This document shows positions 1 through 53,906 of a DNA stretch of 64,000 nt, piece after piece (the stretch's first letter is position 1; the number at the start of each line of letters is the position of its first letter). This DNA comes from Psammoneis japonica (Eukaryota). The notes under the pieces were generated by a model, which did no database searches, was not told the origin of the DNA, and saw only the letters and a list, made by a program, of their open reading frames with translations. Location of the stretch: contig QPGO01000075.1 in the NCBI GenBank assembly GCA_008632985.1, forward strand, positions 2,517 through 66,516, in the 5' to 3' direction. A program made the translations under genes and the position numbers.

Positions 1-1413
1 ATGTCAAGGGACAATGGAATGAAAGCTCTTGCCAAAGCGGCTGTTGTGGCTTCCCGAGAAGAGAATGAGGAAATCCGGTTGTCACAGGAGGAGAACAACC
101 ACAATTCCCAGGAAGAAGATGTGGAAGAAGAGGAGGAGGAAATGCCGGAGGAAATGCGGACGTCAGAGGAGGACAAGGAAGCTGTGAATTCTAAGGAAAT
201 AGACAATGATGCTTCTCAGGAGAAGAAAGATGCAGGTTCTTTACCAAAATCATCAAAATCCAAGGAGGGGGACATTCAACACATTCCCACCAAGCTCCGG
301 CGTTTCGTGAATGCAATCAAACATGACGTGTCAAAGCATGTGCGGGACAATGTCCACCGCACTTGTTCCTTGTTTGCCGTGGTCAACCCAAGCACAGAAC
401 CAAAATCACTGACAACACTGGCAAATTCTGGACGCGGGCCGAACAATCGCGGGAAGAAATGCATTTTGTTGCATCACAACCAGAAGGGGTTGTCATCCGA
501 CTTCGGCAAAGAAGCAAGCAAAAAAGCAAGGGCAGCTGTAAAGGATTTTCTTCTTCGTGAATTTAATCAAGAAAACGAAGGCGACATTGTCGACTTGTTG
601 AACAACAAACACACTCACATTTTGGGAATTTGTGCAATGCCAAAAAATCAAGAAAGTGGCAAACTGGCAACTGATCTTGTCACTGCATTGTTGTGTCGGT
701 GCATTGAATTGGTGCCAGCAACAATTGTTGACCATGTTCGAGTCGACAGAGGAGCCAAAGTGCACGACCATGGGTTGTGCCCCTTCCTGATTAGCCTGGC
801 TCAATCTGTCGGCTGCACGGTTGTTGGCACTTGGGACACAATGCTGCATTGTCAAGTCAAGCTCAAACAATGCCACTGTGAAAGTTTGGGTTTCGAGGAC
901 ATCACAGAGGAAATGAATGAGGAGCCCTCTTGGGAAAGAGTGAGACACCATTGGAATTGGAGTGCTTTGATCAAAGAGGACGGAGATGACACTGGGGCAC
1001 TGATGGTGAAACGCAGAGTCACCACACGTTGTGCAAAAATTGCGTTGCCCATCTCTCACACAGAGGATGATTTCCAATGCAATGTAAAACATTGGCGAGA
1101 TCGTGTTGGGTTCTGGAGCAGCAAGAAGAGACCCGCCGATCAATGCCAAGATTTGGTGGATCAAGAGAAAGACCTCATCTACAAATCGTCAGTGGTGATG
1201 GTTGGCAATGCGACACTGGATTCTTTTAAAGATTCCTGGCAAAAACACATGGATGGACGCCAATGGTTTGACATTGGAAAGTGCATTTACGAATCCTACG
1301 AACATTGCGTGGGTGCAAGTGACGCCAACCAAGTTAAGTCACATTTCGAGACAATGGCTTTGTTTGCCGCAAGCATCAATTTCTCCCCACCAAATGAGCA
1401 AATTGGCAAATGA
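1..1413 (+). pseudogene. Element-borne ORF (possibly 5'-truncated by the window) with an acidic N-terminus and a GNAT acetyltransferase-like segment, TpA-mutated
   Basis: 470-aa ORF. The segment IVDHVRVD...HDHGLCPFLISLAQ...MLHCQ...CHCESLGFE resembles GNAT motifs A/B once C/H are read back as Y (e.g. YYESLGF). Lies in a TpA-depleted domain. Confidence 0.4.
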
Positions 1414-1529
1414 TGAAACATGGAAAAGAGCGGCGTTTCGATCAAGGACTTCCGAGCTGGCTCAAAGAGCGAAATGTGTGAGGGGCAAGTTCAACGCAAC
1501 TGCGGAGTCGGGAACTGACAACCGGAAGC

Positions 1530-3401
1530 ATGTTCTCAACCCCAAGTGTCACCCAACGGAGTCGGAGCGATTCAGATGAAGACATGGAAATGGAAATGCC
1601 TTTGGGTGATGATGGAGCCATGTGTCAACTTCTTGAAAGCATCCATTTGAAGTGCAACACGTGCAACATGCTGTTTCCCATCGATTGCAACCAGGAAGAT
1701 CAAGGTGGACTGTCACCAGCAGCAACTTTGTTTTCAGCGCTTGCGGGACCTCACTGTGATCATGCAATGTGTGTTCCGGGCAAGTGCCCCATTTGCACTG
1801 CACAAAGCAAAAGTGCAGTGTACGAACTGCTGGCTGGTGCTGCACAAGAAGACAGAGAAACTCTGAAGGACCCAGAGAAACGCCAAGTGCGGTTGAACAA
1901 AAAGGATTTCTTTCTGCCACCTTTGCGACACATTGCAATTTGGTGCAAAGAAGCGGAACAACTGCATTGGCACCAGATCAATCGGTTGTTCCGACAACAT
2001 CGTTTTACAGAGCTGGCGAAGGAGGCGATGCTTGACAAAAAATTCTCTGCCAGGGGAAACAAGAGAGAAAAGAAGGAACCAAAACCACAAGAGGGAGATG
2101 GTGACCCAGAGGAAGAGGAGTCCGAATCGGAACCAGAAGATCAAGGTCTCCTTGTGTCACGAAGAAAAGTGTTGTCTGCCAGGGACAAGAAATGTCAAGA
2201 TGTACGTCATGAGGCGAGGATGCACTGTGAGGATGCCAAAGAATTGGAACGGCCACATGGTTTTGAGTGGGTCGATCGGGCCACACGGCCGGATGAAAGT
2301 GAGGTGCCAGGTGATGCTGTTGATTGTGAAGGACCAGTTTTACATGGATGGTTCAAAGATTTCAAGCATGGCAGAACATTTGCTGAAGACTGTTTTGGAG
2401 CGACGAATGACAAGGACATTGGAGGAGGGCCGATGAACCTTGTTCGAGCCGCAATTGAGGAAGCTAAAAAGAAACCTGACACAAGAGTGATTTTCAATGC
2501 CAGACAAAAGAGGCAAATTAGCAAAAGAGCTGATCACGCAACAAACAATGGTCAGGTTCACAAAGTGAGACGGCTGACAGCAAAGGAGCTGACAAAGGAG
2601 GGGCTTGTAGCTGATGATGATTTTGAAGGTCCGGAGGGAACGCCAGCATTCGTGGGGGTTGGCACAAGGAAGAAACCGTGCCATTGCACCATGGAGTGGG
2701 CAAGAGCCAATTTTCAGCAGCGATGTCCCACAGTGTACAAGGCCATGTGTGATTGGGAACCAGGGAAGAAATGTTGCAGACTGCCGGAGGGTCACGTGTT
2801 GGATAAAAGCGGGCTGGAATTTCCCAGCTCGGGACCCCCAGTCAAACATCAACAAGGGGAGAAAGACACGTGCGTGTTTTCGAGCCTGGCCAGTGTCCGA
2901 AATTACATTGGAGATGAAAGGATGGAGCGACACATTGTGAATTACATGGGTCATTCTTGCAGATCAGAGAACACCAGCAACAAATGGTTGGAGTTCGCCA
3001 TTGGCATGTTGTCGGGACAAAAGCAGAAGCTTTGTCCTCCACTGGCTGCATCAATGAAGTGGCACGCATGCAAGAAGTGTCAGAAAATGGCAGCTGGCAA
3101 GAGGGGATTCTTCGATTTGACCACCTGCATTGCCGATGACATCGTTCTTTGTTGGTTGACAAACAATCACTGCACTGCTTTGCATGGTGGTTGGATCTTC
3201 GACTCCAATCATGAACTCGCTCTTCCGGCAAAAGACATTCAGTGGTTGAATTGGTGTTTGGGGAATGACACATTTGAAGCAGATGCACTGGCAGAAGATC
3301 CAAAATCAGCAGTGGAGGAAGCAGTTTTTTTCGAAATGCCGAAGGCTGTCCAAACAAGGTTGCGTAAACGCAAGCGGCAAGACAATGCAGTTGTGGGTTA
3401 A
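1530..3401 (+). pseudogene. Element-borne ORF with an N-terminal Cys/His cluster and a C-terminal papain/C39-like cysteine peptidase domain
   Basis: 623-aa ORF. QQGEKDTCVFSSLAS...NNHCTALHGGWIFDSN gives a Q-C...H-D catalytic-type arrangement. May be the frameshifted continuation of 1..1413. Confidence 0.4.
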
Positions 3402-4743
3402 TTCTTCTTACTTGGCATGGTTGTCGGGGCCAACGATTTCCAGGCATGCAGGCGTTTGCGAGTCACCAATGTTTTGCTGACAAGCCCGGCCTTTTCTGCA
3501 GCACGCAACAGTTGGCACGTTTGCGGCAGTGCACAAGGCTTCCCACCAAGGACATTCATCATGAGCCCCTTAGTTTGAAAACACGTGCCCGCGGGTTGAT
3601 CCGCAAAATGACTGAGCAATTCATGTGTGCCACTCATTTCCTCGTCCGTGTGCGGGTGCACGTTTAACCAACAGCGGCATCCATCAACGATGCATTGGCT
3701 CACAAGAGGCTTCGTCCACTGATTGTGCTTTTGGACTTTCACGTTGTCCAATGGGGTGGCGCAAAGCAAAGGAAGGAAACGATTCTTGGTCGCTGGCATC
3801 AGATCACTTCGTTTCACAGGAGCAAACACAAGCAAGCTGCTGCCCCACACATCTTGCTCTGTCACTTTGAGTTTCTTTAGGACAGTTTGTCGACGCTCGG
3901 CTGTGAGATAAAACTGTGAAGTTGCAGTCTTCCATGTCATGATGATTTGTTTGCAATCCATGCCCGTGGAGGCACCACGATTGGGAAGAGATGATGTCAT
4001 GCTGCAAAACCGATTGCAATGATCGGGTTTTGCTAAAACTGTGCCAGCTTGCAGCCATTTGCCCATGGCAACACAGGCAACAGCATCAACAAAATGCTTG
4101 GGTTTAGTCCGCCTGTCACAATTTCATCAACAACAATCTTAAAGGAATGGTGGTGAGCCAACCGACCGAGAGATTCTAGAAAGTTGTCGCTGAGTGTTGC
4201 GCCATTGTTTGCCAGCATCAATTCTAAAAACAATGCAGTGATTGGCACCTTCTTTACAGCCTGCATCAAACAACGGAGATGAATGTGGTTGAGACAATCG
4301 TTTTCGCACTCACTGAGCTCCGCGGAGCTCAGAGTGCCTGGCATGTGATGCGGCAGCGCAATGGTGTGATTGCGTGTAAAAGAGTTAAACACGTCGTCCG
4401 GATGCATTGCCGCGCTCGGACCATGTTCTGCACTGAACATGCTGGCAGTCCAACAGTGGATGGGCCCATGATCACCGGCCACATAACTTCCACATGCAAT
4501 CAAACATCCGTCGTTGTGCCCTCCTGTCACAGAATCAATTGCAAACAAATTTGCATCGGAGCTGTTTGGCATCACTTTGTACAGCAGCAATTCACCATCA
4601 AAGTGACGAAAAATGACTTCTTCCAACTGCTTGTGGTGGCCGATGTCCATGGAAGAATTCATCAAATCTTCGCCATTGCGTTTTAAGCCACGTGGGCTAA
4701 CGGCAACCAAATTGCACCCCCAATTGTTTGCCATGTCGTCCAT
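3398..4743 (-). pseudogene. Class-III (PLP-dependent) aminotransferase-like gene, frameshifted near 4108
   Basis: ORF 4033..4743 has FLELMLANNG...KIVVDEIVTGG. The other frame continues DAVACVAMGKWL (PLP lysine) into ORF 3398..4066. Confidence 0.6.
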
Positions 4744-5621
4744 GGCGTCGTTTGGGATTGTTCAATGCGCAAAAGAGCAAGATGCAAGATTCAAGAAGAG
4801 TCCCAAAAGATGATTGGATGGAAAAGAGGGGAGGGATCGCAGTTCTGTTGATGGGCTTGCGCAGCGCAGAGGATTTGTGAAAATGAGGTGGAGCAACGCA
4901 TGTGCTCTCAATCACCAAAAGCGCAAAACACGTGCATTCTGCTGCACTGCGCATTTGCAGACAAGCCCTGTGCGCAGGGCCCCACACATGTTCCACACGC
5001 TGAAAGAGCAGCATGCACGCGCGCATGCACTCCCACCCAATCGTGTGATTGCACAATGCATTTCATTCAACAACGTAGATGAAGCGAGCACTTTAAAAAA
5101 GAACACACATGAAAAATCAAACTTCAATTGTGGAAAATCATGCATTCAAAAGTGAACCAATGAGAACCCAATTTTTGTTTAAGGAAAATTTTGTTTCAAA
5201 TGGGAGGAAAGAACAATCTTCTTAACACAACAGGTTGACATGGTTGTCAATGTTCATTTCAGAACAACAATGCTTGATTGAAACAATGAAAAACACAGAA
5301 AAGAACAAAACTGAACACAACTCAAAAACCGTGCAATGAGAACATGCAACCGTGACTTTGCAATTGTGTCAAACAGATTCGGCTCGTCCCGGACCATCCA
5401 CAAGTATAAAAAGCGATTAGAAGTCGAAAACACAATGACGAATTCATTTCATCAGACACAGGTGTCGGTCGTCAGCCTTGATCTTACAAACACATCGAGG
5501 GCAAACACTTCAACAGAGGGAAACACAACCCCGTCAAGGACAGATGTTGCAACAGCGGGGAACACAGGCAGGTGCATTTGAAATCGAAGTGTGCGTTTGG
5601 AAGCTAACATTGTGATCTGAC

Positions 5622-8383
5622 ATGCAGTGGGAAGCTTCCACAACAAATCCAGGGGAAAAAATAACAGCACCCAATCGTCCATTGGATCATCCAAGAGACT
5701 TTTTTCATCCAACAACAGGGGCCAACCCCACAAGACCAGAGGATGCTGCTCTTTTGTGGTCACACCGAAAGGCACGTCCACAACTTGGTGAGGTGGAGAC
5801 GGTGCCGCCCAATGGCAAGAAGATGCTGCAAGAGGTGGCACAAATCCGGTCGTCCCTTCGACAACACATCATGACTCAACACCTGGAGGGCTGTCGGAAA
5901 AATGCAATGGACAAGGAAGTGGCAATGCCATCAACAAACACCAATCCCGTCACAACAGAAGACTTCAAAAACATTCTGGCAAGCATGGACAACACAACCG
6001 AGAATCAGCAGCTCGTGCATCAAGTTTTCCACGCCTTTCATCGCAACAGAGGATGGCTGGCTGCTGCCATTGACAAATGGTTCACCGCAAACAACATGAA
6101 GCTCATGCCGCACGCCACAGACGCTTCCAGCAAACCTCGCAAAATGTGTCGCGATGACAGAGGCGGGTTCACTGTGGTGGCACGCCAAGCCAAATGTCAA
6201 ATAATTAAAACGTTTGTGGAGTTTATGCTGCGGAAAGCAGGCTGGTGTGTGGCAACTACAATGCACAAGAGCAACAAGGAGAATGGAGGTAAAACATGTG
6301 TGGCCGTCCCCGCTGCAACCAATGTGGAAACAACAACCAAAGCAAAGTTTTACATCGTGTCGATGAAACCAGTGGCGGTGAGTTAGTCGCACATTGTTTG
6401 TTTGTCCTTTTGTTGACAATCTTGTTTGGTTGACGACTTCGTTCCCATTTCCGGTCCTTGACAGCAGGAGGAGAACACCGAAGCATCAAAACAAGTTGCT
6501 CAGGGAGCATCCAGCAAAGACATTGACATTGCATCCCTTGTGGACCTTGCAAAAACAGCAAGCATGTTGTCAGAACAAATGGGAGTTCTGCTGTCCAAGG
6601 AAGATTTGCTCCAGTCGATTCGTGGCAGCATGACAGTCACCAGTTCATCCCAAATGGTCAACGAAGAGATTGTGCTTGATCCGCAACATGAGTCCGAAAC
6701 TCAGGTGTCAACACTGACCATGGACACCACACTAAATTGCCCATCTGAACCAACGGCAAAGCGGAAGTTAACCGAGAAGGAGAAGGAGGCAGAGCAAATT
6801 CCTCGTCGGGAGCGCAATGATGAACTAGAACCCCTCACCATGGATTTGGATGTCATCGATGGTTGGAATTCCAATGACGAAGAGTTGGCAGAAATGGCGT
6901 CACAGGTGACTGTGTGATTTGGTGGTCCAATTGCTGTGGTGTTGGATGGCTCTAACCAACTTCCGCTTTGATGCCTTGTTTGGCTTGTCAGACACAGTTG
7001 TCTGGGTCCCCTTGTTGCAGGACGGAACAAGAGCCCGGGAACGCTCCAGCGGCAAGAAAAATGCATTGTGTCATGCGGCTGAATTGCACGTCGCTCACAC
7101 CACTGTTCTTCATGCAAAAGGTTGATGAGATGGACGAGCCAACTGGTGCAAAAGAAAAGGTGAGAGCATTGTCGGTGCTCCAGCTGTCAATTTGGACTGT
7201 TGCTCTAACAGCTCTTTGGCCTCATTGGGTTGCTGGATGCCACACCAAACCATCCCAGATGGTTGAAACACTGGAGCGAGCACAAAAAAAACAAGTGAGT
7301 GAACAGAGTTCTGAGGCAGAGCGCGACACATGGATTGGATCAACCAGTCACACTGCTCCTGCTGTTCTTTATGACCAGGCAAATGAGGTGGTTGACAGTG
7401 GCAACAATGAAAAGGTGAGAGCAATGTCGGTGCTCCAGTTGCAAATGAAACAATTGCTCTGACCACTTTGGGGCGTCATTGCTGGATGCCAGACTCAACC
7501 ATCCCCAGTTGCTGAAATGCCAGAGAGAGCACCAACAGAAGACGGCAAGATCACATTGTCTTGCAGCCAATTGTGCAATTCATCGGACACGTCTCACACA
7601 GCCGTTGTTGTTTGCAATGAGAAAGGTCGAAGAGACAATGGCAAATGGCGCAAATGAAAAGGTGAGAGCATTGTTGGTGCTCCGGATTGCCATTGAGAAG
7701 TTGATCTAATGGCATTCAATGTGTGTCATGATGGCATTTCTTTTGCAGACTCAACCAGCCAACCACTCTAAACCATTGTTAAATCCATTGCAAAACAAAG
7801 CGGTGAGAATGCATGATGAAGTCATGTGGATTGTGCGCAGTGTCTTGGAAACATCACCTCTCATTTTGTTGTTTGTTTGCAACAAAGACAAAGACAGCAA
7901 ATGGCAAACGCACACACAAAACTGCAACACTCGTTGTGGCTCAAGTGGATCAAACAACTGCTTGCAATTCACAGGTGCAGAGCAAACGTCATTGTTGATT
8001 TGGCACGCCTGTTGTTGTGTTGTCTTGTTTGCGCACGCAAACCAATTGTGTTTGTTTGTTTGTGTTTGCAGTGCAAGTGTGAGGAGGCTCACTTGTTCCA
8101 TGCCTTGGTCCATCAAGATGACGGAAAACACTTTGCTCAAGCGTGCTTCAAAACCAACCCACTGTTCCCCACAAAGTGCTGTGGCGAAAAGTGTGATGTT
8201 GTTTTTGGATCAAGCAGTTACAAGATTGGACAAAGAAAGGCAGTTTGGGTTTGCATGAACGCATTGAATGGTTCTTGCAATTGCAGGTTTGCATTGTGTG
8301 TGCAGTGTCATCAAAAGACCATGTCAGCTGCATCCAACAAACGGTGCCGAAGGACAACCCGAAACAACAACAACAAACAATGA
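5622..8383 (+). pseudogene. Multi-exon hypothetical gene of the element, ending in a Cys-rich putative zinc-binding domain
   Basis: ORFs 5622..6386 and 6540..6917 join in frame via a GTGAGT..CAG intron at 6378-6464. Repeated GTGAGAG donor-like sites follow. The 3' part has CCGEKC...CMNALNGSCNCRFALCVQC. Exon structure beyond 6900 is uncertain. Confidence 0.35.
7154..7760 (+). repeat. Three diverged ~250-bp tandem units, each with an intron-like segment
   Basis: GAAAAGGTGAGAGCA(T/A)TGT(C/T)GGTGCTCC at 7154, 7409 and 7656, each followed by a CTAA/CTGA branch-like site and related downstream sequence. Confidence 0.7.
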
Positions 8384-8519
8384 GGCAACGCAACACATGC
8401 GCACGACGCAACACAATGTGCAATTGCTTGGGATTGATTTCACCGGCACAGTCAGGGTTCGGCGGATGTGTTTGTCAACAGAGTCAATCGAAGCACAGCT
8501 TCGCAAATGACAGTTGTTC

Positions 8520-8959
8520 AGAGCATCAGCAAATTTGTTCATAGTTATGATCTGTTTAAATGGAGAGGCTGTCGTCGTCCGTTGTTTATTCAGAGCTTTG
8601 CTCTAGTTAAATGTCCGTTGTTTATTCAGAGCTTTGCTCTAATTAAATGGAGATTCCACGGGCATCCAAACATTATTCAGAGTCGTGCTCTGATTGAATG
8701 GACACAATCACAGCAGCGCTCTGAATGTCAGCACAATGCTCTAATTTACAAATTAATGCTCTGGATACAATGCTCTAAATAAAATTCTATGGCTCCGAAT
8801 AACCAAATTTACTCTGATTGTGCTCTGCGTGGGCGTTATCGCCTTTTAATTAACTCTTATTTGCTCTGAATGTCCCACATTGTGTCGGGATAATTTAAAT
8901 AAAGCGTTGCTCAGAATAAAATATTCGGAGCATAAATGAAGAGAATCTCATCTGCAGTG
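8520..8959. mobile_element. Right terminus of a large DNA transposon (CACTG end, CMC/EnSpm-like) with subterminal short repeats; the element probably spans the window start to 8959
   Basis: Many copies of GCTCTGAAT/ATTCAGAGC-like motifs in both orientations over 8520-8935. Sequence ends ...CTGCAGTG at 8959 (reverse complement CACTGCAG) just before host-type sequence. The left end and any transposase are not in the window. Confidence 0.5.
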
Positions 8960-9069
8960 CAGCGCATCGCAATCTTGATCTGGCAGTCTGGCAATGGTTT
9001 CAAGTTTCAAGACGCTGCGTTCGTAATAAAGAGCAAGAGAAGAAACGCACTGTATGGTACTAAAACAAC

Positions 9070-10557
9070 ATGACGGAGGATGGAAATGAAGCCGGCGTTG
9101 TGATTGAGACGCAAGATCCGCCGCCTGTGGAGTCTGCAACAACAACAAGTGGGGCGAAAGATAATACCGGGGGCAGTTTGCACGGAGGAAAACAAGACGA
9201 CTACCAGAGGGATCCGAATAATAACGCCACGACTCTTGACGTTGTTTCAACATGGTCTGAAGGAACATCCGTTCATGGTATCCCCTATGCGTTAGATCGA
9301 CAGCATTTTCTTCGGTGGAAGCGCCTGCTTTGGTGGATCATTTTGTTGGCCTTCTTTGGTGTCATGTGTTTTCTCGTTTACGAACTAATCAAGGAGTACC
9401 AAAATTATGAGACCGAAACCACCGTGTATTGGAGAGCTCCAGATAGTTTGCCGTTTCCTCATGTGACTGTTTGCAGCTCAAATTTATTCCAACAGTCAAG
9501 GATGGAAACTACTGGTATTCAGTTTCCTCGAAACGATAAAGAGCTTAAACTCATCTCGCAGCCTTTTGAAGCTTTCTTTCGCAATACAATCACCAAATTC
9601 AACGGAATTGTGAGAAACAACACTGATGTATGGAAACCTGTAATAACGCATTTAGGCCTCTGCTGGACCTTCTCTACTGTTAAAAGAGTTTACAGCCCTG
9701 GCCCAGCTGGTGGGTAAGTCATGTCAAGATTTTGAATAACGAGAGCTACCGTTTATTCTGTGGTGATCATTATCACTCACCCACACGATTTCAGACTGGT
9801 GTTTAGTGGCTACCTAGATAATTCAGATTTTTTGACAATCACAGAAGAGCTCGGTGTTTACGTTTTCATCACACAGCCTGGCATCCAGATTGCCGACCAA
9901 ATGCCTTTTGCTGTTGCCAAGCCTGGTGAACTGAGTTGGATCTCCATTAAATCAACTGAGTTCTTTCGAGAACGAGACCACCCGTGGTCCACTTGCAAAT
10001 CCGAGGCTCCAGAGTACACACAGCCTCGATGCCGTGCTCTTTGTAAATTCCAGTATTTAGAACAACAGTGTGGCTGCCGAGGCTTGGGTGACAACCGGAA
10101 AGAAGTCGAATCGCTGCCGTACTGTAACACTGCAGATGAAGAGTGCACCACGCTTGAAAAACAAGACGCTCCTGCATTTCTTGAAAGCTGCGACTGCTTT
10201 CCACCGCCATGTCACGAAACAGTCTACACAACGCGGTCCAACACTTTGAAGTTATCGGCACCGTTTGTTCTACAATTATCGGAGCGGTTGAATGTTTCGC
10301 TGGCAGAGTTTCAGCAGAATGTTGTCCACCTTCGTATCAACTACGACACGATTTGTGAGGAGGTGTCGGAAGAAACCAAGGTGCAGACTCTGGCAGGGCT
10401 GTTTGCAGCCATTGGTGGCCAATTTGGCTTGTGGGCTGGTATTTCGTTCATTAGCATTCTGGAGGTCATTGGAGAACTCTTTTTGTTCCGTTTTATCCCG
10501 CGTCTGTGGGGAGATCACCGTTTGTATGGCATGGGCAGCAAAACAAAGACTGCGTAA
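9070..10557 (+). CDS. DEG/ENaC/ASIC (amiloride-sensitive sodium channel) family protein, 2 exons, ~468 aa
   Basis: Pre-TM1 TSVHG motif, TM1, FPHVTVCSSN, Cys-rich thumb (CRALC..CGC..CDCFPPPC) and TM2 IGGQFGLWAGISFISILE. An intron at 9714-9794 (GTAAGT..TTTCAG) restores the frame. Confidence 0.88.
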
Positions 10558-21207: not shown

Positions 21208-21626
21208 GATTTCATTCACTTGCCCTGTCTCATGGACAATTCGTTGTTTTCTGTTACCGTACGTATTGGAGGTCTTGCATCGGCATTGTAAAACCCCATC
21301 AGATCTGAAAGATCTGTTACGACGATTCTTGAGAATCTGCGATTCTTGAGAATCCGGACCTGGAATTTTGTGAAAACCGTTTTTTAAGAATCGGACCTCG
21401 TGCAAATTTCCCATTTGTTGTGAACCACCGATTCTCCAGAATCACGGTCACCGATTCACAAGAATTCCCTTTTTGGCCATTTTCCGGATTCTCAAGAATC
21501 CCAGACATGCTCAAGACGTGGCACCCTTGCTCTTCGGCCTCCTCCTTCTTTGCTCCTGTTTTCACTTTGTGCCATTCTGTTGTTCTTCTTGGCCGAGATT
21601 GACCCCACGTTGTTGCATCCACCGCC

Positions 21627-24600
21627 ATGTCCGTTGCTCTCCCTCCCAACCAACCAGACGCCACTGTCCTCACATCTCCTGAGAAGGTGAGGGCCGTCTT
21701 CATGGAGACCAAACACCGTGAAGCTTTCAACTTGATTGCCTTTGGCATCAAGGACAACCAATTTGATGATGTCTCGCTTGTGAACAACTCCAAGTTGATG
21801 CTTCGTTCTGAGTGGGAAACAAGGGTTCGAGCTGTCAAGTTCTGGAACACCGGATTAGATGGGCTTGACAAAAAGGAGTTCCGCAAGCAATTTGGCAACC
21901 AAGCTTGCTCCTGGGTTCACACCCACCTTGTAGAGACGAATGACTTTGGTTGCAACACTCTCTTCCGAATCAAGAAGAACTCCGACGGAGAGATTGTTTC
22001 CAAGCTCGTGGTTGCTCACCTTGAGCAGACATTTGATGTCGTGGCGCAGCACCATCACCAGACGGGCGGTCATCTAAAGCTTGCACGCACATTCAATGAC
22101 ACAAAGAAAAAATGCTGCAATGTGACTGAACAGCTGGTTTCCCACTGCATTGATCTGTGCCCCACTTGCAGCAAGGCCCAGCCGTCTGTGGCAAGAGTTG
22201 AGGGGGCTCGTGTCCCAATCGTGAGCCGGAGTTTTCGTGACAGGTTCCAGATGGACCTTGTCGACTGCCGAAAGGACCCTTGCCAGTTCTACCCAGGGGA
22301 CCCAAACTCCCCGACCATGAAGTGGCTCATGGTTTTGAAAGATCACTGCACCAGGTTGCTCTGGACCACTGCCATTCCCTCCAAGGAAGCAAAATGGGTT
22401 GCCAAGGAGTTCTGCCACATTTGTTCTTTGATCGGCTGCCCCCTTGTAAGCCACGCAGACAACGGGAAGGAGTTCACAGCAGATCAAGTGACTGAAGCCA
22501 TCCAGGAGCTCAACCCGTGCTGCAGCGCTGTCCAGGGTGGTGCCAGAATGCCTTGGCACCAGGGTTCCGTGGAGCGCTCAAACCACCCCATTAAATCGGC
22601 CATCGCTTTGCTTGTCGAGGAAGAGATCTGCAAGGGAAACACCAATGCATCATGGGTGATGGAGCACCCCAAGGCAATGGCGTCTCTCAATGCAACTGCC
22701 AACAAAGGAAAAAGTGAGTGCTCTGCCTGCTTCCATGTCTTTGGCATGGAGTTCCATGAACTCCTGACAACCGTTCCCCTTGCAAACCTGCAAAGTGCCA
22801 AGACTGTTGCTGAGAGATGCACCATCATTGGTGGAGACTACAAGAGGAAGATGCTGGCAATGGGTGAGGTCACGGAAGAAGAGATTGCTGCTGTTGTTTC
22901 CAGCAAAATTGGTCCATCGAATCTCTCCACCACTGACTCTGTTGCTTCAGCCGGCTGTCCTCCTCCTTTGGGCACAGGCAATCTCACTGCCGACTTCCAC
23001 GCAGAAACGTCCTCTCCCTCTCCCAAAAAATTGAATGCCTCCGCATCTGCAGTTGCTTTGTTCTCGCCAATCAAGTCTGGCAAAAGCAATGGAGAGCAAC
23101 CCGCATTGCCACGCTCGCCAGCAGACACGGAACAACCAAACCCCCCCCCCTCCTTCGATTGCAGCCAAGGCATCACCAAACAATGTGGAGGCACCCCCGG
23201 CCAATTCAGCCGGTGTGCTGTCCAAGCGTGTGCATCCAAGGAATCACCAAACAATGAGGAGCCACCCAAAGCCAATTCAATCACTGTGCCAACCAAATTG
23301 GTCACAGCCAAGGAATCACCCACTGACATGGAGGTTGAAAAAGAACCACAAACCACTGTGGGTCTGCCAACAGTGTTGCCAACAGACACAGAGCTGTCCA
23401 AAGCCGGGGTTGCCAAGGCACAAGCAAAGCTGGAGCAATTTTTCCCGGCTGCAACACTGAAGACGCAAGTTGCCAACCAAAAATTTTGGTCGAAGTTTCC
23501 CTTCAACCGTCGGGTGGCTTTGTCAAGCACAAGACACCGTGTGACCCTGGATGATGGCACCACACCAAAGTGTGTTTATCCACAACTTGATTGCCCCAGG
23601 TGCTGCCTGTCGGGCAAACCTTTCAAGGTTGCATGCCATGACAACGATTGCATCCACAACAGCAGGAGCAGAAGCCGATGGTTTGACACACAATTTGTCT
23701 CAAGTTTTGCACAGTTGCTTGCAGACGAGGGTCACCCGCAAAACACAAGGATGCTTCATGTCATGCATGGGGCAACGTCCTTGGCTCAACTTCAAGGGTC
23801 GTTGAACAGCCAACCAATCTCGCTTTCAGGGTCAGTCACAACTCTCTGCTCTGTAGCCAACCGGTCGTCACATTTTGCTGTGCTTAAATTTTTGTTGCCG
23901 CAAAAAACCATTCAAGTTTTTGAGGGCCTTGGGTGCAAACTCACCACCTGGAATGACGAAATCATGTGCACTCTCAAGAGGTGCGGCCTTGTGTCCAAGG
24001 ATTCACAAGCAAGACGTGTCTTGGAACATGAAGAGAATGGAACTCCACCAGCAGCCAAGAATTGTCGTTCAGGTGCATGGAAAGTGCAAAGAGGAGAGGT
24101 GTCAGCAGCTCAAACGGACACCCACAGCTGCGGCCCTCGTGCTTGCGTTTTACTTTGGGACATTCTGTCACCCGGAACAATGCCCTTGCCCTTGCAATTG
24201 TTGTCTCCTGACAATTGTCGCCTTGCTGTGATGAACAAGTGTCACGATCTTTTGGAAAATGAACAATCAAAAGATTTGCACTTTCTCCAAAAAGTCAAGG
24301 GTGTCACTGTTGACTGGGAAGAAGAAGAGCATCATCCAAAAGTTCCCAACTCTGATGTTGTCATGATTGACCAAGAAGATCCCACAGTGCCTCAAAGGAT
24401 TCGTTGTGGATTGTGCCTTGACGAGGAGCTTCCGGTGGACATGGCGCTTCATTGCTGCCAACTGACTTTGCATTTGCACTGTGTGCTGGGCTGCCTTGAC
24501 TCTGACAGTTTGTGCCCCTGCTGCCACTCAGAAATTGACGAGGCTTGTTTCGAAAAACTCAATGATGACGATGTCAAGTTGCTTCTGGCAAGGTCTGCAG

Positions 24601-25739
24601 CAGAATCATCCTCACAGGTTCAAGATTGTGGGAAGCATGGAAAACTGTCAGTTGTCCACAAGACAGAAAGTGTCTCGGACAGCTCAGAAAGGAAGGAAGA
24701 CACAGACGACAAGTTGTCGCAGTCACCCCACTGTCACGAGAAAGAAAATCCAAAGGGCTCATTTCTGAAAACAGGAACACAAACAAGGTTCAAAAGTGGC
24801 AGCTCTTTTTGGAAAGAACGCAAAGCCACAATTGCCGGATTCCACAGAAACACGGTGGTGACCTCTGAAGGCGACTGGCTGCAATTCAAGAGTGAAAAGG
24901 AGGAAGATGAAACCATCAAAGAGTGGGAACAAATTGATGTGCATGATCCAGCAATTGCCTTGGAGCCACCGCCAGGTGACCAACCCATTTGCATGTCATT
25001 GCGACTGTGGCATGTGTGCGTTGACAAGGACTTGCAAGAGTGGTTGCGGGAGGCAAAGTTGAAGCGACCAACAATTTATGACCAACTCATTGCCAAAACA
25101 ACAAAGGAATGCGGCGAAGGCAGTGCCTGGGCTGTTGCCGGACCAACTGGTGTCACAGCAAAATGTCAAACAATTGCCAAGATGAAGGACTTGGGAACCA
25201 TGCCTGAACCCAAAACAGGACCTCCATGCAAGATCTGGAAGCTGGATGGTGGCACACCAACCAGTGATTTGCTCCCAAATGACGATCATCAAAACCGCAG
25301 AAACAAGAGAGCATGCAGTGACAAACTCGCTAAAGATCGTCAAGAACGCAGTCACAAGAAAATGAAGGTGCGGTTTGAAAAAAGTCGCTCTCTTGTTCCC
25401 GGCTGTTTGGCCAGAATGAAGGTGGACAAAAGAGATCGCAACAAAGGCAACTACATCGGAATCATTGGCGTGGTGTGTGAACAACATCCGGAGAGCATGT
25501 TGGTCAAGGTGGTGACAGAAGGTGGCATCATGTCCACTTGCAACAAACCAAGAAACATTCAAGCAAGAGATTGCAGCCCTTTGCGGAACCAGCATGTGCC
25601 GGTGGCCGAAGCACTTGACAAGTGGCGACAAGAAGTCAGGGACGGCACGTTCGATGAATCATCTTGTCCAAAGATAAGTTTGAAGAAGGCCCACAAGAAT
25701 AGCACAGGAGACCAACCCAACAACATCGATCAAAAATAG
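21627..25739 (+). CDS. Transposase/integrase (HHCC + DDE, KRBA2/Ginger-like) fused to a Ulp1/SENP-like protease and a RING-like finger; TpA-mutated, probably dead
   Basis: HHQTGGH...CPTC; FQMDLVD, HADNGKEF and QGSVERSN; SSHFAVL...QTDTHSCGPRAC; CGLC..C..HLHC..CPCC. About five Tyr in 1370 aa. Confidence 0.85.
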   Translation: MSVALPPNQPDATVLTSPEKVRAVFMETKHREAFNLIAFGIKDNQFDDVSLVNNSKLMLRSEWETRVRAVKFWNTGLDGLDKKEFRKQFGNQACSWVHTHLVETNDFGCNTLFRIKKNSDGEIVSKLVVAHLEQTFDVVAQHHHQTGGHLKLARTFNDTKKKCCNVTEQLVSHCIDLCPTCSKAQPSVARVEGARVPIVSRSFRDRFQMDLVDCRKDPCQFYPGDPNSPTMKWLMVLKDHCTRLLWTTAIPSKEAKWVAKEFCHICSLIGCPLVSHADNGKEFTADQVTEAIQELNPCCSAVQGGARMPWHQGSVERSNHPIKSAIALLVEEEICKGNTNASWVMEHPKAMASLNATANKGKSECSACFHVFGMEFHELLTTVPLANLQSAKTVAERCTIIGGDYKRKMLAMGEVTEEEIAAVVSSKIGPSNLSTTDSVASAGCPPPLGTGNLTADFHAETSSPSPKKLNASASAVALFSPIKSGKSNGEQPALPRSPADTEQPNPPPSFDCSQGITKQCGGTPGQFSRCAVQACASKESPNNEEPPKANSITVPTKLVTAKESPTDMEVEKEPQTTVGLPTVLPTDTELSKAGVAKAQAKLEQFFPAATLKTQVANQKFWSKFPFNRRVALSSTRHRVTLDDGTTPKCVYPQLDCPRCCLSGKPFKVACHDNDCIHNSRSRSRWFDTQFVSSFAQLLADEGHPQNTRMLHVMHGATSLAQLQGSLNSQPISLSGSVTTLCSVANRSSHFAVLKFLLPQKTIQVFEGLGCKLTTWNDEIMCTLKRCGLVSKDSQARRVLEHEENGTPPAAKNCRSGAWKVQRGEVSAAQTDTHSCGPRACVLLWDILSPGTMPLPLQLLSPDNCRLAVMNKCHDLLENEQSKDLHFLQKVKGVTVDWEEEEHHPKVPNSDVVMIDQEDPTVPQRIRCGLCLDEELPVDMALHCCQLTLHLHCVLGCLDSDSLCPCCHSEIDEACFEKLNDDDVKLLLARSAAESSSQVQDCGKHGKLSVVHKTESVSDSSERKEDTDDKLSQSPHCHEKENPKGSFLKTGTQTRFKSGSSFWKERKATIAGFHRNTVVTSEGDWLQFKSEKEEDETIKEWEQIDVHDPAIALEPPPGDQPICMSLRLWHVCVDKDLQEWLREAKLKRPTIYDQLIAKTTKECGEGSAWAVAGPTGVTAKCQTIAKMKDLGTMPEPKTGPPCKIWKLDGGTPTSDLLPNDDHQNRRNKRACSDKLAKDRQERSHKKMKVRFEKSRSLVPGCLARMKVDKRDRNKGNYIGIIGVVCEQHPESMLVKVVTEGGIMSTCNKPRNIQARDCSPLRNQHVPVAEALDKWRQEVRDGTFDESSCPKISLKKAHKNSTGDQPNNIDQK

Positions 25740-27685
25740 TTTTGTCGCACCATCACGTGTCACTTTTCACTAAGAGGTAAACCCCCTCAACAACTTTTCA
25801 ACTTTTTTCATCATTTTGACTTTCTAGGCAAATCGGTCACAGTCATTAGAGCAAAAATGAGGAAATGAACGTTAATTAGCCGTCACTCTGGTCATTTACA
25901 TGAGACAAAAAATAACGACCTGGAGGAAAAAAGGGTGCTGTTGCAGCCGTCGCGACGCCACCATGAATGGGTCCATGCAAACAACAGGTGCTGTCCCTCC
26001 ACCGGTGGATTCCCCCCTTCCTCCTTCGATGGCACTGGTGGAGGCTGTTCTTCTGGTGGCATGTCAATCAGAAGCATGAAGGTCGGTTGGTGGATGTGTT
26101 TTCATCCCAGGTGAGAAACGCGCGTGCGGAGGTGAGACGTTTCGTCTGTCCCTTTTCCGTCGCCGTGCTTTTTGTGCGAGCAAATCTGACTGGACTTTCC
26201 CCGATTTTTCGTTTCTTCTTTCCACAGACATGTTTATTTTGAAAAGCCTCCGTCATTCTCATTGGTTGAAGGGTGCGCACAAGAAAAGCGCTGTCTCGAA
26301 AGCGGCATTTTTTGGAGTGAAACTGACAGCTGTCTGCTCGTTGTTGTTATTCTGGTGCATTTGAGAGACTGTTCTGCTGTTTCTTTCACCGAATCTGACT
26401 GCTTTGAAAGAATGCACGCATCATTCATTGTGTGAAGAGCTCACACCAAAAAAGAACGGCGTTCTAACTCCATCATTTGCATGAGAAAAATCGGGGGAAC
26501 TGACTTCACACGTGATTTTTTTGCGCGATCGGCCATTTCAAAGATCGACTGATTTGTCGACCTGTGTGGGATGCTTGAGTGAATAAAACAATGGGATTGA
26601 AACAGCAGCGTCAAAGTTCAATGTGTGTCTGGTCATTGTGTGATTTGACATGCCCAAGCAGAGTTGAAGATGAAATGTTGACAAAATTTCACCGCTCAAA
26701 ATGACTGGTTCTATCTTAGAATAAAACAAAATGGCTGCAACACTGAGACATCGCTGATGGCATTGTTCCGCTTTACAACAATGAAACTGTCACACTTGCA
26801 TCTGAGATTCTTTGTCCTCACACACCCTCAAAACCGAACACATGATGATTCTCTTGTCGGCAGCGAAATCTGATGTTGTCGCACGACCCAAAAGCATCGT
26901 CCATGACGACTCAAAGTGCGGATGATGCATCACAAGAATCACAGCAACGTGTCACAGAAACATTCTTCGTTGTCAGCATCCGGTGTCAAGCAGATGGAGC
27001 AGCGCGTTGATGAGAATCCTGCTTCGCAAGCTGAGGAAGAGAGAAAGAGGCATCAAAAACATCATGAGTCAAAAGGCCATCCACAAGGCACAACAAAAAA
27101 CAAAGATCAAATTTTCAACCACATCATCGCATTGAGCGTTGTCTCATTGACCTGTCTCGGCATTCTTGCCTTCTCAGTCACAACATCCGTTGGTGCAAGA
27201 ATGGACGAGTTCATGGCGATGGCATGGTGCCATTTTCGGTTTGCGCGAATTGTGGTTTGTGGTTCGAGACATGGAAAAACACACTTTTGCTGTCATGGAG
27301 CTCGTTTTCTACAAAGATTTTTGGCACTGAATGCACGTCTCATGTAGAAACACGTAGAAAACCTCGTGATGTGTCCAAAAGTTTCTCACCCAGGATGAAA
27401 ACACATCGGTGCCACGTCGACATCATGCGGCAATGCACTGTAAAACAACAGGTCAATGGGCGGTGCGCACAATGTGCACACAGTCTTACCTGCATGCAGA
27501 AAACATGCTGAAATGCTCTGCAGGAAATTTTCATCGCAATGCTTTGCATGTTCCAAAATTTTGAATTGAAAATTTCGAATCAAATTGAAACAAACAACGC
27601 TCATTTGACAAATCATTGTGCAGCAATTTGGTGACTGCATGTTGAACATTTTCGGATTCTTAAGAAAAAAAATGTGATGTTTTAA

Positions 27686-28526
27686 GGGTGGTCGGTTGCC
27701 ACTTTTTTTAGCTCGAATTCGGCCGAACAGCTCGTGTTTTGCATGATTTTTCCTGGATTTCACCGTGCTTCACCGTGGTGAAAACAACAAGCCATAAGTC
27801 TGTGATGGAGGTGGTCCGTCTGCCAACTCTCATTTATTTTATGTTTGTTGTGTGTCAAAGATTGCACGCACATGAAAAGTTGGTGGACGGCAAACTGCGT
27901 TTTTGAGAAATGTCGATGATTGTCATTGTCGTCGTGCTTCGATCGCAGTGCTGATGGTTCTCGTTTTCGTGCGCGATCGGGTGTGACTGTGAACAATTCT
28001 TGCATTCAAAAATGAACACTGTAAAAAACCTGCGGCATTCTCAAGGGGGGTCATCCCCGCGTTTGTCCCAAAATTGCCGTTGCATTTGAATGAGGTTTTT
28101 TGCAGTGTTCATTTTTGAATGCAAGAATTGTTCACAGTCACACCCGATCGCGCACGAAAACGAGAACCATCAGCACTGCGATCGAAGCACGACGACAATG
28201 ACAATCATCGACATTTCTCAAAAACGCAGTTTGCCGTCTACCAACTTTTCATGTGTGCACGCAATCTTTGACACACAACAAACACAAAATAAATGAGAGT
28301 TGGCAGATGGACCACCGATTGCCGTCTACCAACTTTTCATGTGTGTGCAATCTTTGACACGTGACAAACATGAAACAAATGAGAGTTGGCAGACGGACCA
28401 CCTCCGTCACAGACTTATGGCTTGTTGTTTTCACCACGGTGAAGCACGGTGAAATTCAGGAAAAATCATGCAAAACACGAGCCATTCGGCCGAATTCGAG
28501 CTAAAAAAAGTAGCAACCGACCACCC
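27686..28526. mobile_element. Foldback/MITE element nested in the Ginger-like element
   Basis: Inverted arms 27686-28031 and 28093-28526 (the right arm has an internal ~88-bp duplication) around a ~61-bp spacer. Ends GGGTGGTCGGTTGC; flanks TTAA (left) and TCAA (right). Confidence 0.85.
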
Positions 28527-29005
28527 TCAATAATCCGTGCCGTTGATTCTTGTTAAAACCAGCAGGACGAGCTATCATAGAATTTATCACTCAACGGAAA
28601 TCCGATTCTCGAGAATCGGAATTCGGATTCTTAAGAATGGGAATTCACGACTTTCGTCGTGACAGATCTTCACTGCGCTGCCGCCGACACCGTGGACACA
28701 CTAATCCTGCAAGGTTCGTTCGCTCGCCAATAGCAATGATGACGTGCATGCTTTCCGATACACGTTAAATCCTGCTACGTCAGCAGTACGGTTGCCTCAT
28801 TTTTTTTTTGCGCGGGCACTTCACAATCTTCAACTTCCCACGATAGACCGTGAAGGTTCACGCTAACATCAGTATTCTGCTGCTGTATTATTATTTCTGA
28901 CGATCCCTTTACCTTGATCTCCGAGCAAAGACCACCTGACTGCTGCAATAGTAAGTTCTAAAGAAGTGGCATAGCGAGCAGAAGTTGCTGAGCTCGAGAG
29001 GAAGT

Positions 29006-45718: not shown

Positions 45719-46980
45719 GTGTGGCTGAAAGATTCATGATCTGCATTAACTCATCCTCTATAAAACAGCAAAAAGATCCGACTGCCAATGGTCATGCATG
45801 CACATGGTTAAAAAGCCCGAATACCTCAAATGTGACGTGCAACATTGTGAGAACGAAACCCACCGAAGCGCTTGTAGCCGCGTTTCGATGAATGATACGA
45901 TTTTTGATGCATTAGGGCTACAAAGACTTGTATTCCAGCCAGTACAAAGATTGACTCCGCATCACAAACGAGAAGATACTCTGAACTTGCAGTAGCATGC
46001 AACAGCGCGAGCATCCTCTAAATGACAAGCGCCTCATACACAGTATAGCACCGCACTCAGCTTGCTTTAAGCGGCCTCTGCCATATCATAAGACTGCTTT
46101 TACGCTACATATGGATCATCCTGTAGCAACTACATGGGAAACAGTGTTAAAATAATCCGTACATCCATTTGAATCGCAGCGCGGCGACGTCATGGCCGCA
46201 TCGTCGCGTGCATGGATGGTGGAAAATCTGTCTATCAATTGTATTCATTGTTGAATAAACGTATATGCTCCAGAAATTCTTCACTTCAAAAACGGCGGCG
46301 TCTGCAGCCATGATCCATGATGTTCAGCTTCAGAGGTGGTCGGCGTTAGTAGTACAAAAAATCGCTGCACATCGCACCGATCACACCTTAAGCCATTTCG
46401 ATCAGACATCGTGAGAATAAGAAAAGATTTTTTCAACTCGACGCTGAAGGGAAAAAGACGATCTACATATAATATGACGATGAACCCTCATTCATCTTTT
46501 TGGTCGAGCATGATTGGCTTTTTCTCGTTCCTTTTTCAATTGGATTACGTGGAGGAAACTCAAGAGTTGTCAGAACCAACCCGTGATTGTGTTGCTGAAG
46601 AAAAAAATTCGGTCGCCACGGTGCCACGACAAAACCATGAATCATCGACCGAAAGTCATGCTGCCGCAGAAGAATCATTGATGCGTTCCAGGTCTAGGTG
46701 GGACCTCGCACTGCTGAACTGTGACATCGACAGTTTTTTGAATCACGTGTATGTCGCGAACGTAGATTTCTACGTGATTTTTTCGACATTTTGTGTCATT
46801 TTACGGTGCACTTGTTGAGCGATCCGTCCAACAACTTTTTACATTTTTTGTCACAGCGCGATTCTACAATGTCTTGTGAATCGCGCAGGGCGGGCACATT
46901 TGCAGAAACGTCGAGTGGCAAGAGGCACAATTGCACCACAAACTTGGCAGTTTATTTGATGTTGAAGACAAACACATCCA

Positions 46981-48558
46981 TTGGTTGAATTCTCGTGCTG
47001 CGGAGCTCGCACGCAGAATTCTGCGGGCCCAATGTCACACGGAGTCCCACCTGGGACTGGAACCCGTCCATTTCAGTTGTCGTCACAGGGGCAAGAATCA
47101 TCTGCTGACAATGCGAAAGAAAATTGTTCTCTGGAGACTTCTGACTTGTTGCACGCCGCTGACGATTCGTTAAGATCAGGGGCAGCGTCACAAAACATTG
47201 AAAACAAAAGCACTGATGATGACGAGAAAGTCTCACGCAGCAGCCGAGAATGCGATCAAGAAGCATCGGGGAGCCGAGAGCAAGCACAAGCGCGACTCTT
47301 GTCGGATCATAATCCATTGACTGAGCTCAACAAGCACGTCACAAAGCCCCGACTCAACTCAAGACAGCATGCGTTAAATTTTACGAGCCAAAGTTGCTGT
47401 TCACAGGGTGGGCGACACAATGGTGGAGGAGCGCGTTCTCACTGCCCCAAAAGGCCATCCACCACCTTTCAACAACGAAGGGTGATGCAGAAGTCGAGTT
47501 TTCATTTCGTGAGAGAGGAGCGGTCGGATGCCAGTTGTGGATGGTCTGTCAACAAGATTCATGTGGGTTCTTTTACGAATCGCGTTAGTGACAAGGATCA
47601 CACCGCAGCAAGAGTGGCCCAGGGCGGAAGCAAAGGCAAAGCATCTGCTTTGGCTTTGACCAAAGATGCGAGCAGGTCTGAGAAACGACACCATCAGCTT
47701 TTTGCCAAGGACGAGAAGGAGCCTTTTGAGAATCCCAAGATGTCCACTGGTGGAAAGCGGAGTGCGCCCGCGTCATCAAGAAACCCTTCAGCAAGTGCCG
47801 CGTCCCGTTCGACCAAAGACACTGGCAGGTCCGAGAAACAACACCGTCAGCTTTTTGCCAAGGATGAGAAGGAGCCTTTTGAGAATCCCAAGATGTCTGC
47901 CAGTAAAAAGCGGAGTGCGAGCGCGTCATCAAGAAACCCTTCAGCGAGCGCCGCATCCCGTTCGACCAAAGATGCTGGCAGGTCCGAGAAACGACACCGT
48001 CAGGTTTTTGCCAAGGATGAGAAGGAGCCTTTTGAGAATCCCAAGATGTCTGCCAGCAGAAAGTGGAGTGCACCCGCGTCATCAAGAAACCCTCCAGCGA
48101 GTGCCGCATCCCGGTCAACCAAAGATACGAGCAGGTCCGAGAAACGACACCGTCAGCTTTTTGCTGAGGACGAGAAAGCACCCGAGATGACCAATGGAAA
48201 GCGGGGTGCTCCCGCGTCATCAAGAAACCCTCCAACGATGAGCGCCAGAAGAAACCATCCACCAATCGACGTTTTGGACAGCAGTGATGACGATCGCCTC
48301 CAACCAAAGCACAAAAGAAGACCTTTTGCCGATGCTGAAGATGAGGCCATTTTAGCTGGCGTCAAAGAATGCGGTGAGGGGAACTGGAAAGCCATGAGAG
48401 TGTGTGGCCATGCCGTCTTGCACTCGCGCAGCACGGTCAACATCAAGGATCGCCATCGTGTTCTGAAGAAATGCGGGAAAACTGAGGGAATGGAAAACTT
48501 CCCGGATGAATGTGCAGATGCAATTGCTGATGAGACGCATCATGGCAGCAGTGAGTGA
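46981..48558 (+). pseudogene. Element-borne ORF with 51-aa repeats and a C-terminal telobox/TRF-type Myb domain, TpA-mutated
   Basis: RRPFADAEDEAILAGVKECGEGNWKAM...SRSTVNIKDRHRVL matches a TRF Myb pattern (FT..ED..L..GV..YG.G.W..I...R....KDRYR) after T->A, Y->C, I->M and Y->H changes. Start uncertain. Confidence 0.7.
47659..48230 (+). repeat. 153-bp coding tandem repeat, ~3.5 copies
   Basis: ACCAAAGA.. units start at 47659, 47812, 47965 and 48118. Confidence 0.95.
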
Positions 48559-48966
48559 ATCAATTGATGATCCGATTGCGATCTTGGTGTGGTGGGTCCA
48601 AGAACTGAAGATTCAACACAACTCTTGCGTCGTCATTTTAGTTTCTCAGCAGGACCATGGACTAAAATAATTTCATCCTTCCTCATCTTGTGAACAGTTG
48701 CACTGGTGGCGACATTCTCATGTTGCAGCCATGCCGTTGCTTGTCGTGTGCGACATGGGCGGCGACACCATTTTCACGTTTCTCATGGTGTGGTTGGGGG
48801 ATTGAGAGCTCCTCATCATTGCAATGAAGCCGCCAAATTCAGAAACCAAACAGACGCACCGGCATTGTCCACAGTTCTTAGCTGCGACAGGCTCTGCGGC
48901 ACAACAGCAGAGGGCATGGCAGCCCTCTGCTCTTCTCTGCTCTCCAGCTCTATCTGCTCCACTCTT

Positions 48967-48969
<3 letters not shown>

Positions 48970-48999
<30 letters not shown>
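48970..48999. repeat. (CT)n microsatellite
   Basis: Uninterrupted TC run of about 14 units. Confidence 0.9.
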
Positions 49000-49001
<2 letters not shown>

Positions 49002-52720: not shown

Positions 52721-52768
52721 ACATTCATCTGATGTGTTAAAACTGCCTGTGTTGTGTCGGCCCCCTTC

Positions 52769-53812: not shown

Positions 53813-53906
53813 GGTCGTTTTGAGATTTGTCGGTCCCACCAACATTTCGTAGTTTCGTTTCTGTAGATTTCATTGCCTTGCACAACATGCGGGAGTGATG
53901 TCACTG

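Follow-up and report, generated by a model that had tools for sequence, protein, structure and literature searches.

The 7.36 kb transposon at positions 21315-28664 of a 64,000-nucleotide stretch of Psammoneis japonica DNA (contig QPGO01000075.1; hereafter the window) carries close to both ends a repeated palindrome, GATTCT-YR-AGAATC, in which YR is the central dinucleotide between two half-sites. The host is a diatom, and the best named homologues of the neighbouring CPSF100 gene are, judged by sequence similarity, diatom proteins. The palindrome is best explained as a subterminal motif of an integrase-type, cut-and-paste transposon of this diatom, the family consensus having TA at the centre. 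A process specific for the dinucleotide TpA would convert this centre to TpG on one strand, read as CpA on the other, the strand that is struck deciding between TG and CA. Ordinary loss of CpG would act beside it, both processes ending in TG or CA. The copies centred on CG and CC would be independent variants and not products of the TpA mutator, the CG copy persisting at the element's 3' end, where mutation is least. Taken as a whole, from the element and its motif to the TpA process and the independent status of CG and CC, this explanation is judged probable but well short of certain.

The element is delimited by 11-nucleotide terminal inverted repeats (TIRs), TGTTACGACGA on the forward strand (21315-21325) and TGTCACGACGA on the reverse strand (28654-28664), which are the sole exact terminal 11-mer matches. 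Its termini are of the TGT..ACA type, and GATC stands on each side (21311-21314 on the left, 28665-28668 on the right), either as a target-site duplication or as a fixed target. A shared read-contig begins exactly at 21311, the G of the left GATC. Between the ends lies an intact integrase-type transposase gene (21603-25739, forward strand) coding for 1378 amino acids, with an H2C2 zinc finger (H-x4-H-x28-C-x2-C) and a DDE core whose D218, D286 and E324 are invariant. The frame contains no TGA, whereas each of the five remaining frames has 25 to 57. Pfam returns a weak rve match, while a profile built from the window transposase and five relatives matches retroviral integrases, with prototype foamy virus (PFV) integrase at 1.9e-13. 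The family is large, with 646 representative relatives at E<=1e-30. In the read contigs of a public run, the depth is about 58 in the flank and about 230-300 at both element ends, which corresponds to roughly 4-5 copies.

With up to two half-site mismatches allowed, nine copies of the motif are found in the window. Two TG-centred copies (GATTCTTGAGAATC) lie at the left end, at 21324-21337 and at 21341-21354, the second being the ortholog of a TA copy at the right end. They are followed by a degenerate TA-centred copy, GTTTTT-TA-AGAATC (21379-21392), a CC-centred copy, GATTCT-CC-AGAATC (21430-21443), a degenerate CA-centred copy, GATTCA-CA-AGAATT (21453-21466), and a further CA-centred copy, GATTCTCAAGAATC (21487-21500). 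The right part of the element harbors two TA-centred copies (GATTCTTAAGAA), at 27655-27668 (12 of 14 positions) and at 28626-28639 (13 of 14), and, 22 bp from the latter, the CG-centred copy GATTCTCGAGAATC (28604-28617), which is contained in a 20-nucleotide palindrome (28601-28620). This is the sole perfect 20-nucleotide palindrome, both of these TA copies being imperfect. The census therefore reads TA 3, TG 2, CA 2, CC 1 and CG 1, with a pyrimidine-purine (YpR) centre in eight of the nine. Such a density is not expected by chance: the pattern GATTCTYRAGAA has 10 matches on both strands, against 0.06 expected, and 10 or more were obtained in none of 100 shuffles.

An earlier, sequence-only reading of the window had described this palindrome as occurring in all four states, TA, TG, CA and CG. 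Re-reading of the window sequence finds every instance that it named where it was placed, and the four spellings are indeed all seen. However, GATTCT-TG-AGAATC and GATTCT-CA-AGAATC are reverse complements, that is, one duplex read on opposite strands, so that this set holds three chemical states and not four. The 23-nucleotide unit at 21336-21358, which bears a TG copy, is an inverted copy of 21483-21505, which bears the CA copy (96% complementary). The same reading overlooked the CC copy at 21430 and the degenerate copies at 21379 and 21453. All these states belong to different positions of one element and do not represent one site followed across copies. The consensus GATTCTTAAGAATC has its sole TpA at the centre and no CpG at all; hence a TpA-specific mutator can strike the motif only at the centre. 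The motif copies differ almost only there, as TA, TG or CA.

The element's own transposase would bind at this motif, and changes at its centre may impair transposition. Plant En/Spm and Ac elements carry short subterminal transposase-binding motifs, which are repeated in either orientation over the few hundred bp next to each end. The element described here resembles them in the repetition of motifs near both ends, but its transposase belongs to another superfamily.

Relatives of the element were sought in metagenome contigs by a scan for two adjacent motif copies, which returned at least 120 loci; the relatives and their centres are drawn from the loci listed. Six of the 120 listed are the same kind of element, namely L050 (identical to L114), L071 (identical to L011), L042 and L102, with L114 and L011 left out of the counts as duplicates. 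The comparison of centres covers the window element and four independent ends of these relatives. The L050 transposase is 33% identical to that of the window and its motif array follows the gene, while L071, L042 and L102 have the same array and the termini TGTTGTGACGA...ACA, then GATC. The left TIR of the window aligns with its own right end and with these termini, and GATC adjoins the ends in L050, L042 and L071/L011. In L071, two elements share one GATC where they meet, as a duplicated GATC target would lead one to expect. The left and right ends of the relatives align over ~350 bp, so that the motif array, with copies mostly 22 bp apart, lies within long TIRs.

The 36 centres of the relatives comprise TA 17, TG 10, CA 7, TT 1, GG 1 and CG 0, and are thus TA, TG or CA in 34 cases. 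In their alignment, one site is TA throughout and several are polymorphic, positions 6 and 9 showing TA, TG and CA. Counted inward from the terminus, the first complete motif is orthologous in all four aligned ends; it reads TA at the right end of the window element (28626), TG at its left end (21341) and CA in the relatives. A passage between TG and CA takes two steps unless it goes via TA or CG, and CG is never seen at the orthologous sites of the relatives; TA is therefore the hub. The TIRs differ too, as the sequence-only reading had remarked, with TA on the left and CA on the right in the window and TG in the relatives, which fits the same TpA process. TA centres are fewer in the window element, the more TpA-purged one (three of nine), than in the relatives (17 of 36). 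The proposal of that reading that TA is ancestral and that single hits give TG or CA is supported by these comparisons.

The opposite polarity has also to be considered. If CG were ancestral, all changes would be C>T decay (CG to TG/CA to TA) caused by deamination of 5-methylcytosine together with an attack on CpA resembling fungal repeat-induced point mutation (RIP). That the CG copy is the sole perfect palindrome would fit such a scheme, as would the depletion of CpG in the transposase gene and the differences between copies, which are mostly CG versus TG/CA (from 40 of 563 rows of the comparison). Nevertheless, the consensus does not have CG at its centre: among the centres of the relatives CG is absent and TA is the commonest, and where a site shows TA, TG and CA without CG, a CG ancestor demands more steps. 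Moreover, a RIP-like decay enriches TpA, whereas the transposons of the window have TpA observed/expected ratios (O/E) of 0.04-0.28 with CpA/TpG in excess, and conserved tyrosine codons have been lost, not gained. An ancestral CG is accordingly rated as highly improbable.

Several pieces of evidence document the loss of TpA and its direction. Host genes have TpA O/E of 0.43-0.72. The ratio falls to 0.12 over the element and to 0.07 within its transposase gene; a Gypsy element of the same window has 0.19-0.28, and three unannotated patches have 0.04-0.14. CpA/TpG reaches 1.5-1.9 in the TpA-poor transposon regions and about 1.1-1.2 in host genes. The relative L050 shows the same contrast, with TpA O/E of 0.16-0.30 in the element and 0.53-0.72 in its flank. 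At the protein level, tyrosine accounts for 0-0.6% of the transposon open reading frames (ORFs), 0.4% in the transposase. In host ORFs its share is 1.2-3.7%, and the median for 153 relatives is 3.0%. Histidine and cysteine are raised in the transposon ORFs. In the gene, tyrosine codons and NTA codons fall to 3.7 and 5.1 per 1000, compared to 26.5 and 35.1 in host genes. In a profile alignment with 152 relatives, none of the six conserved tyrosines is kept, three of them being now cysteines, whereas other conserved columns are retained in 78 of 111 cases. Of four isoleucine-to-valine changes in the transposase, three occur after a T. As conserved tyrosine codons have been lost, the direction of change is from TA to TG/CA. 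Sequence composition and codon loss together support the view that the transposons of this genome undergo a TpA-specific transition process.

The purge is uneven along the element. Its last 270 bp kept most TpA and CpG, while the left end is purged: in 28400-28668, where the CG copy and a TA copy are found, TA is observed 8 times against 14.8 expected, and 7 against 12.4, while 21400-21600, with TG/CA copies, contains no TA against 12.4 expected. The transposase gene is fully open though every conserved tyrosine is gone; judging from its sequence, the transposase would be either still functional or purged very recently. Sister copies differ from the window by only ~1.2% (19 differences in 1639 bp), and most of the TpA purge therefore predates them.

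The Gypsy element mentioned above (body 49439-53869, reverse strand; long terminal repeats, LTRs, at 49040-49472 and 53907-54339) indicates by its LTR pair that the TpA process still acts after insertion. The two LTRs are separated by 20 transitions, all of them at YpR steps, and one transversion. Nine of 14 TA sites differ: TA stands in the 3' LTR and TG (eight sites) or CA (one site) in the 5' LTR, never the other way round. The remaining transitions are five exchanges between CG and TG/CA and three CA/TG doubles; the TpA change is mixed in this pair with CpG loss running alongside it. The 5' LTR, with a TpA O/E of 0.22, is poorer in TpA than the 3' LTR (0.57), and the flanking duplication reads CTAT on one side and CTGT on the other. 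The polyprotein has two in-frame stops, and the active site of its reverse transcriptase reads HLDD, where YxDD is the expected motif. In both the DNA transposon (28400-28668) and the Gypsy element (49040-49472), the 5' end and the body are purged and the 3'-terminal 270-430 bp are spared. Such a boundary hints at a mutated domain with an edge, possibly tied to transcription or chromatin.

The sequence-only reading went further than a single hit. In its chain, a first hit on the ancestral TA gives TG or CA, a second hit at CpA/TpG gives CG, and the new CpGs become methylation targets that reinforce silencing. The first step is the one supported above, one CG-centred copy does exist, and the LTR pair has two sites with CG in the hypermutated LTR and TG or CA in the other. 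The second step fares differently. A change confined to TpA creates no CpG in one step, and CG occupies none of the centres of the relatives. None of 11 conserved histidine, glutamine, cysteine or tryptophan columns has turned into arginine. Between the LTRs, a gain of CG is possible at no more than two of ~72 CA/TG sites, while TA was lost at nine of 14. The CG copy, besides, sits in the least-mutated end. In the chlorarachniophyte Bigelowiella natans, all 230 A>G or T>C hypermutations are on TpA (bioRxiv 10.64898/2026.01.13.699255).

Comparison with sister copies, from 40 of 563 difference rows representing 33 events, points the same way. The window has TG/CA where a sister copy has CG 14 times and the reverse once, and TG/CA where a sister copy has TA six times and the reverse never. 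As 14 supposed second hits without first hits are implausible, the 14 differences are taken as CpG losses in this copy. When the differences between CG and TG/CA are sorted by protein conservation, only two sites fall in the aligned part, both in variable columns, which leaves these differences unpolarised. The window's own variant was not seen at the listed sites in the read contigs, which has no bearing on that variant. A polarised spectrum from the four ends of the relatives, noisy and in part mis-polarised, gives losses at 8 of 14 TA and 7 of 11 CG; out of 43 CA/TG sites, five have become TA and six CG. CpG O/E is 0.49 in the transposon gene and ~1.0 in host genes, and CGN codons stand at 25.5 and 43.4 per 1000, respectively. 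CG and TA thus appear as two sources both draining into TG/CA, and not as the ends of one chain. A mutator making new CpG methylation targets is an attractive idea that the data leave unsupported, and the chain as a whole is considered very unlikely.

A number of observations weigh against the explanation favored here, namely an ancestral TA centre struck by a TpA-specific process. The left-end states (TG, TG, CC, CA) stand together on one read-contig at ~4x single-copy depth, which differs from the window at three positions, two of them outside motifs. Being common to close copies, these states are fixed there and predate those copies; they may be old and tolerated rather than recent damage. 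At three positions, all copies of the relatives agree on TG or on CA, and for these a TA and a CG ancestor are indistinguishable. The CC variant is found in the relative L071 as well, so that some of the variation at the centre is unrelated to the mutator. Finally, the direction of the 14:1 CpG differences comes from a two-way comparison, and, if the window derives from unpolished long reads, some of the CG versus TG/CA differences may be base-calling errors at methylated CpG.

The sharing of left-end states by ~4 close copies, the three fixed positions and the recurrence of CC in the window and in L071 would also suit a centre that is merely a loosely constrained spacer, with states that are old, position-specific, fixed in the family and unrelated to any mutator. 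A free spacer, though, would give all 16 dinucleotides, and what is seen is the near-exclusive use of TA, TG and CA in the relatives and of YpR in the window. The polymorphic orthologous sites, furthermore, centre on TA, and the more purged window element is poorer in TA centres than its relatives. The spacer is therefore regarded as rather unlikely, and a TA centre exposed to the TpA process is retained as the better account.

The closest known parallel to the TpA process comes from B. natans, where 230 of 231 hypermutations in two viral inserts are A>G or T>C; the preprint proposes an ADAT2-like adenine deaminase and describes a process confined to foreign or repeated DNA, patchy and not constitutive, with TpA depletion and an excess of CpA/TpG (bioRxiv 10.64898/2026.01.13.699255). 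The same change as the one deduced here from the lost tyrosines has been measured directly in that organism. The two cases share the TpA depletion with CpA+TpG excess and its patchiness, there in giant-virus and virophage inserts and here in transposons. They differ in host (a chlorarachniophyte and a diatom), in target (viral inserts there, DNA and LTR transposons here) and in the nature of the evidence, mutation-accumulation lines in the former and comparative evidence alone in the latter; in neither is the enzyme shown. By analogy, an adenine deaminase is the leading candidate here too. The LTR changes are almost only transitions, and the A>G/T>C direction comes from the loss of tyrosine. 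A search of the literature found no report of a TpA-specific mutator in diatoms.

Fungal RIP offers a second comparison. Like the process described here, it is directed at repeats and disables the genes of transposons through transitions that depend on a YpR dinucleotide context. Unlike it, RIP changes C to T at CpA and enriches TpA, whereas here TpA is removed and CpA/TpG accumulate. The ratios of the element (TpA/ApT of 0.14 and (CpA+TpG)/(ApC+GpT) of 1.56) are opposite to the fungal signature of TpA excess with CpA/TpG deficit.

As to its classification, the element shares with Ginger1, Ginger2/TDD and IS481EU the TGT..ACA (TGTNR) termini, the TIRs, a 4-bp flanking duplication and the combination of H2C2 finger and DDE core. 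Its own termini read TGTTA and TGTCA, in agreement with the TGTNR rule of Ginger1. That group, however, has a fixed palindromic 4-bp target, CCGG (PMC2836005, PMC10045372). The flank here is GATC, in the window and in three relatives, and neither CCGG nor CCGT. The Pfam scan of the transposase gives rve only, without OTU or Ulp1 domain, and a regular-expression scan, which is crude, does not find the YPYY and GPY/F motifs of Ginger1 in the window protein and five relatives. The only pattern matches in that scan are a CPCC in the window protein (residue 971), which falls in a Cys/His-rich stretch near the C-terminus rather than N-terminally of the zinc finger, and, in P0001, a pair of GPH strings outside the integrase core. 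In a further departure from Ginger1, relatives of the window element carry RING fingers. The H2C2 and DDE modules without YPYY or GPY/F, together with the TGTNR termini, agree with Ginger2/TDD, but the AT-rich RTATAY target of that group is replaced by GATC. With IS481EU, compared by its description, the TGT..ACA termini and the 4-bp flank fit. IS481EU elements have target-site duplications of about 4, 15 or 25 bp and are described only from parabasalids (PMC10045372). The word "subterminal" occurs 0 times in each of PMC2836005, PMC6839031 and PMC10045372, and 22-bp arrays of a palindromic motif go without mention there. The element is therefore left unassigned among the integrase-type transposons. 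With its GATC flanks and its palindromic motif in 22-bp arrays, it apparently stands for a group of such transposons not described before.

On a more speculative note, it is conceivable, if doubtful, that diatoms run a programmed TpA>TpG/CpA DNA-editing defence against transposons and that the transposon lineage has purged its TpA in answer. The editing, probably an adenine deamination, would be limited to a domain covering the 5' end and the body and sparing a few hundred bp at the 3' end. The lineage would have given up nearly every TpA, including those of the conserved tyrosines, with its 1378-codon gene still open. The central TA of the palindrome would be the one target that it could not give up, making the motif an arms-race site between editor and transposon. 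Apart from this scenario, the consensus palindrome, with a single TpA and no CpG, is a convenient built-in reporter whose centre records hits alone. The first measurement of TpA-directed hypermutation dates from 2026 and concerns a single chlorarachniophyte (bioRxiv 10.64898/2026.01.13.699255). Its full signature, including direction and activity after insertion, in the transposons of a diatom, a member of a distant and ecologically dominant algal group, would suggest that the process is widespread in eukaryotic microbes and not a one-off.

Two other repeats are inserted in the 3' part of the host element. A 1.3-kb nested element (26093-27407) with 27-nucleotide inverted ends and GGTG on both flanks belongs to a very abundant family, because its read-contig depth is 2000-10000 as compared to 58 in single-copy flanks; a joint is seen at 26069>27441. 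A high-copy foldback of ~850 bp (27682-28530) is an inverted duplication whose arms are 94-99% complementary. A piggyBac-type foldback with a TTAA flank was ruled out, as the inverted repeat continues through the TTAA. Other copies of the host element, devoid of the foldback, have a 22-36 nucleotide hairpin at that place and more TTAAGAAT half-sites.

The remaining 114 of the 120 loci listed were judged to be repeats of other kinds or matches due to chance and were put aside. L049 was rejected as evidence for a CG consensus, being a CG-centred GATTCTCGAGAATC satellite without TIR and without integrase; its positions 1-1357 are nearly all GATTCTCGAGAATC-type repeats, with CG in 13 of 15 centres and no visible link to the transposon. 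L040 and others were rejected for their non-YR centres, and L067, L095 and L096, which have similar motifs but no shared termini, were excluded from all counts. A scan of viral contigs that used the family alignment produced 108 pattern matches, with no relative among them. The second element in L071 (1700-1860, or 200-360 in L011), which abuts the same GATC, carries the palindrome CAGTCT-TG-AGACTG and shares the core TCT-YR-AGA; related families appear to differ in their half-site sequence.

The 153 family proteins, namely the five relatives of the profile and 148 from the search that gave the 646 representatives, include five with less than 1% tyrosine (P0187, P0203, P0214, P0256 and P0266), four of which have ~7-8% of histidine plus cysteine. 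These five may represent further copies in public data that have been purged of TpA. In the window itself, more TpA-poor patches are found at 1-8000, 46966-48558, 48000-49000, 54500-55500 and 57500-64000, where TpA O/E is 0.04-0.18 and CpA/TpG is raised. Their ORFs, which match nothing in Pfam, contain 0-0.6% tyrosine, and CpG O/E drops to 0.11 in 60001-64000. These patches are probably other hypermutated repeats.

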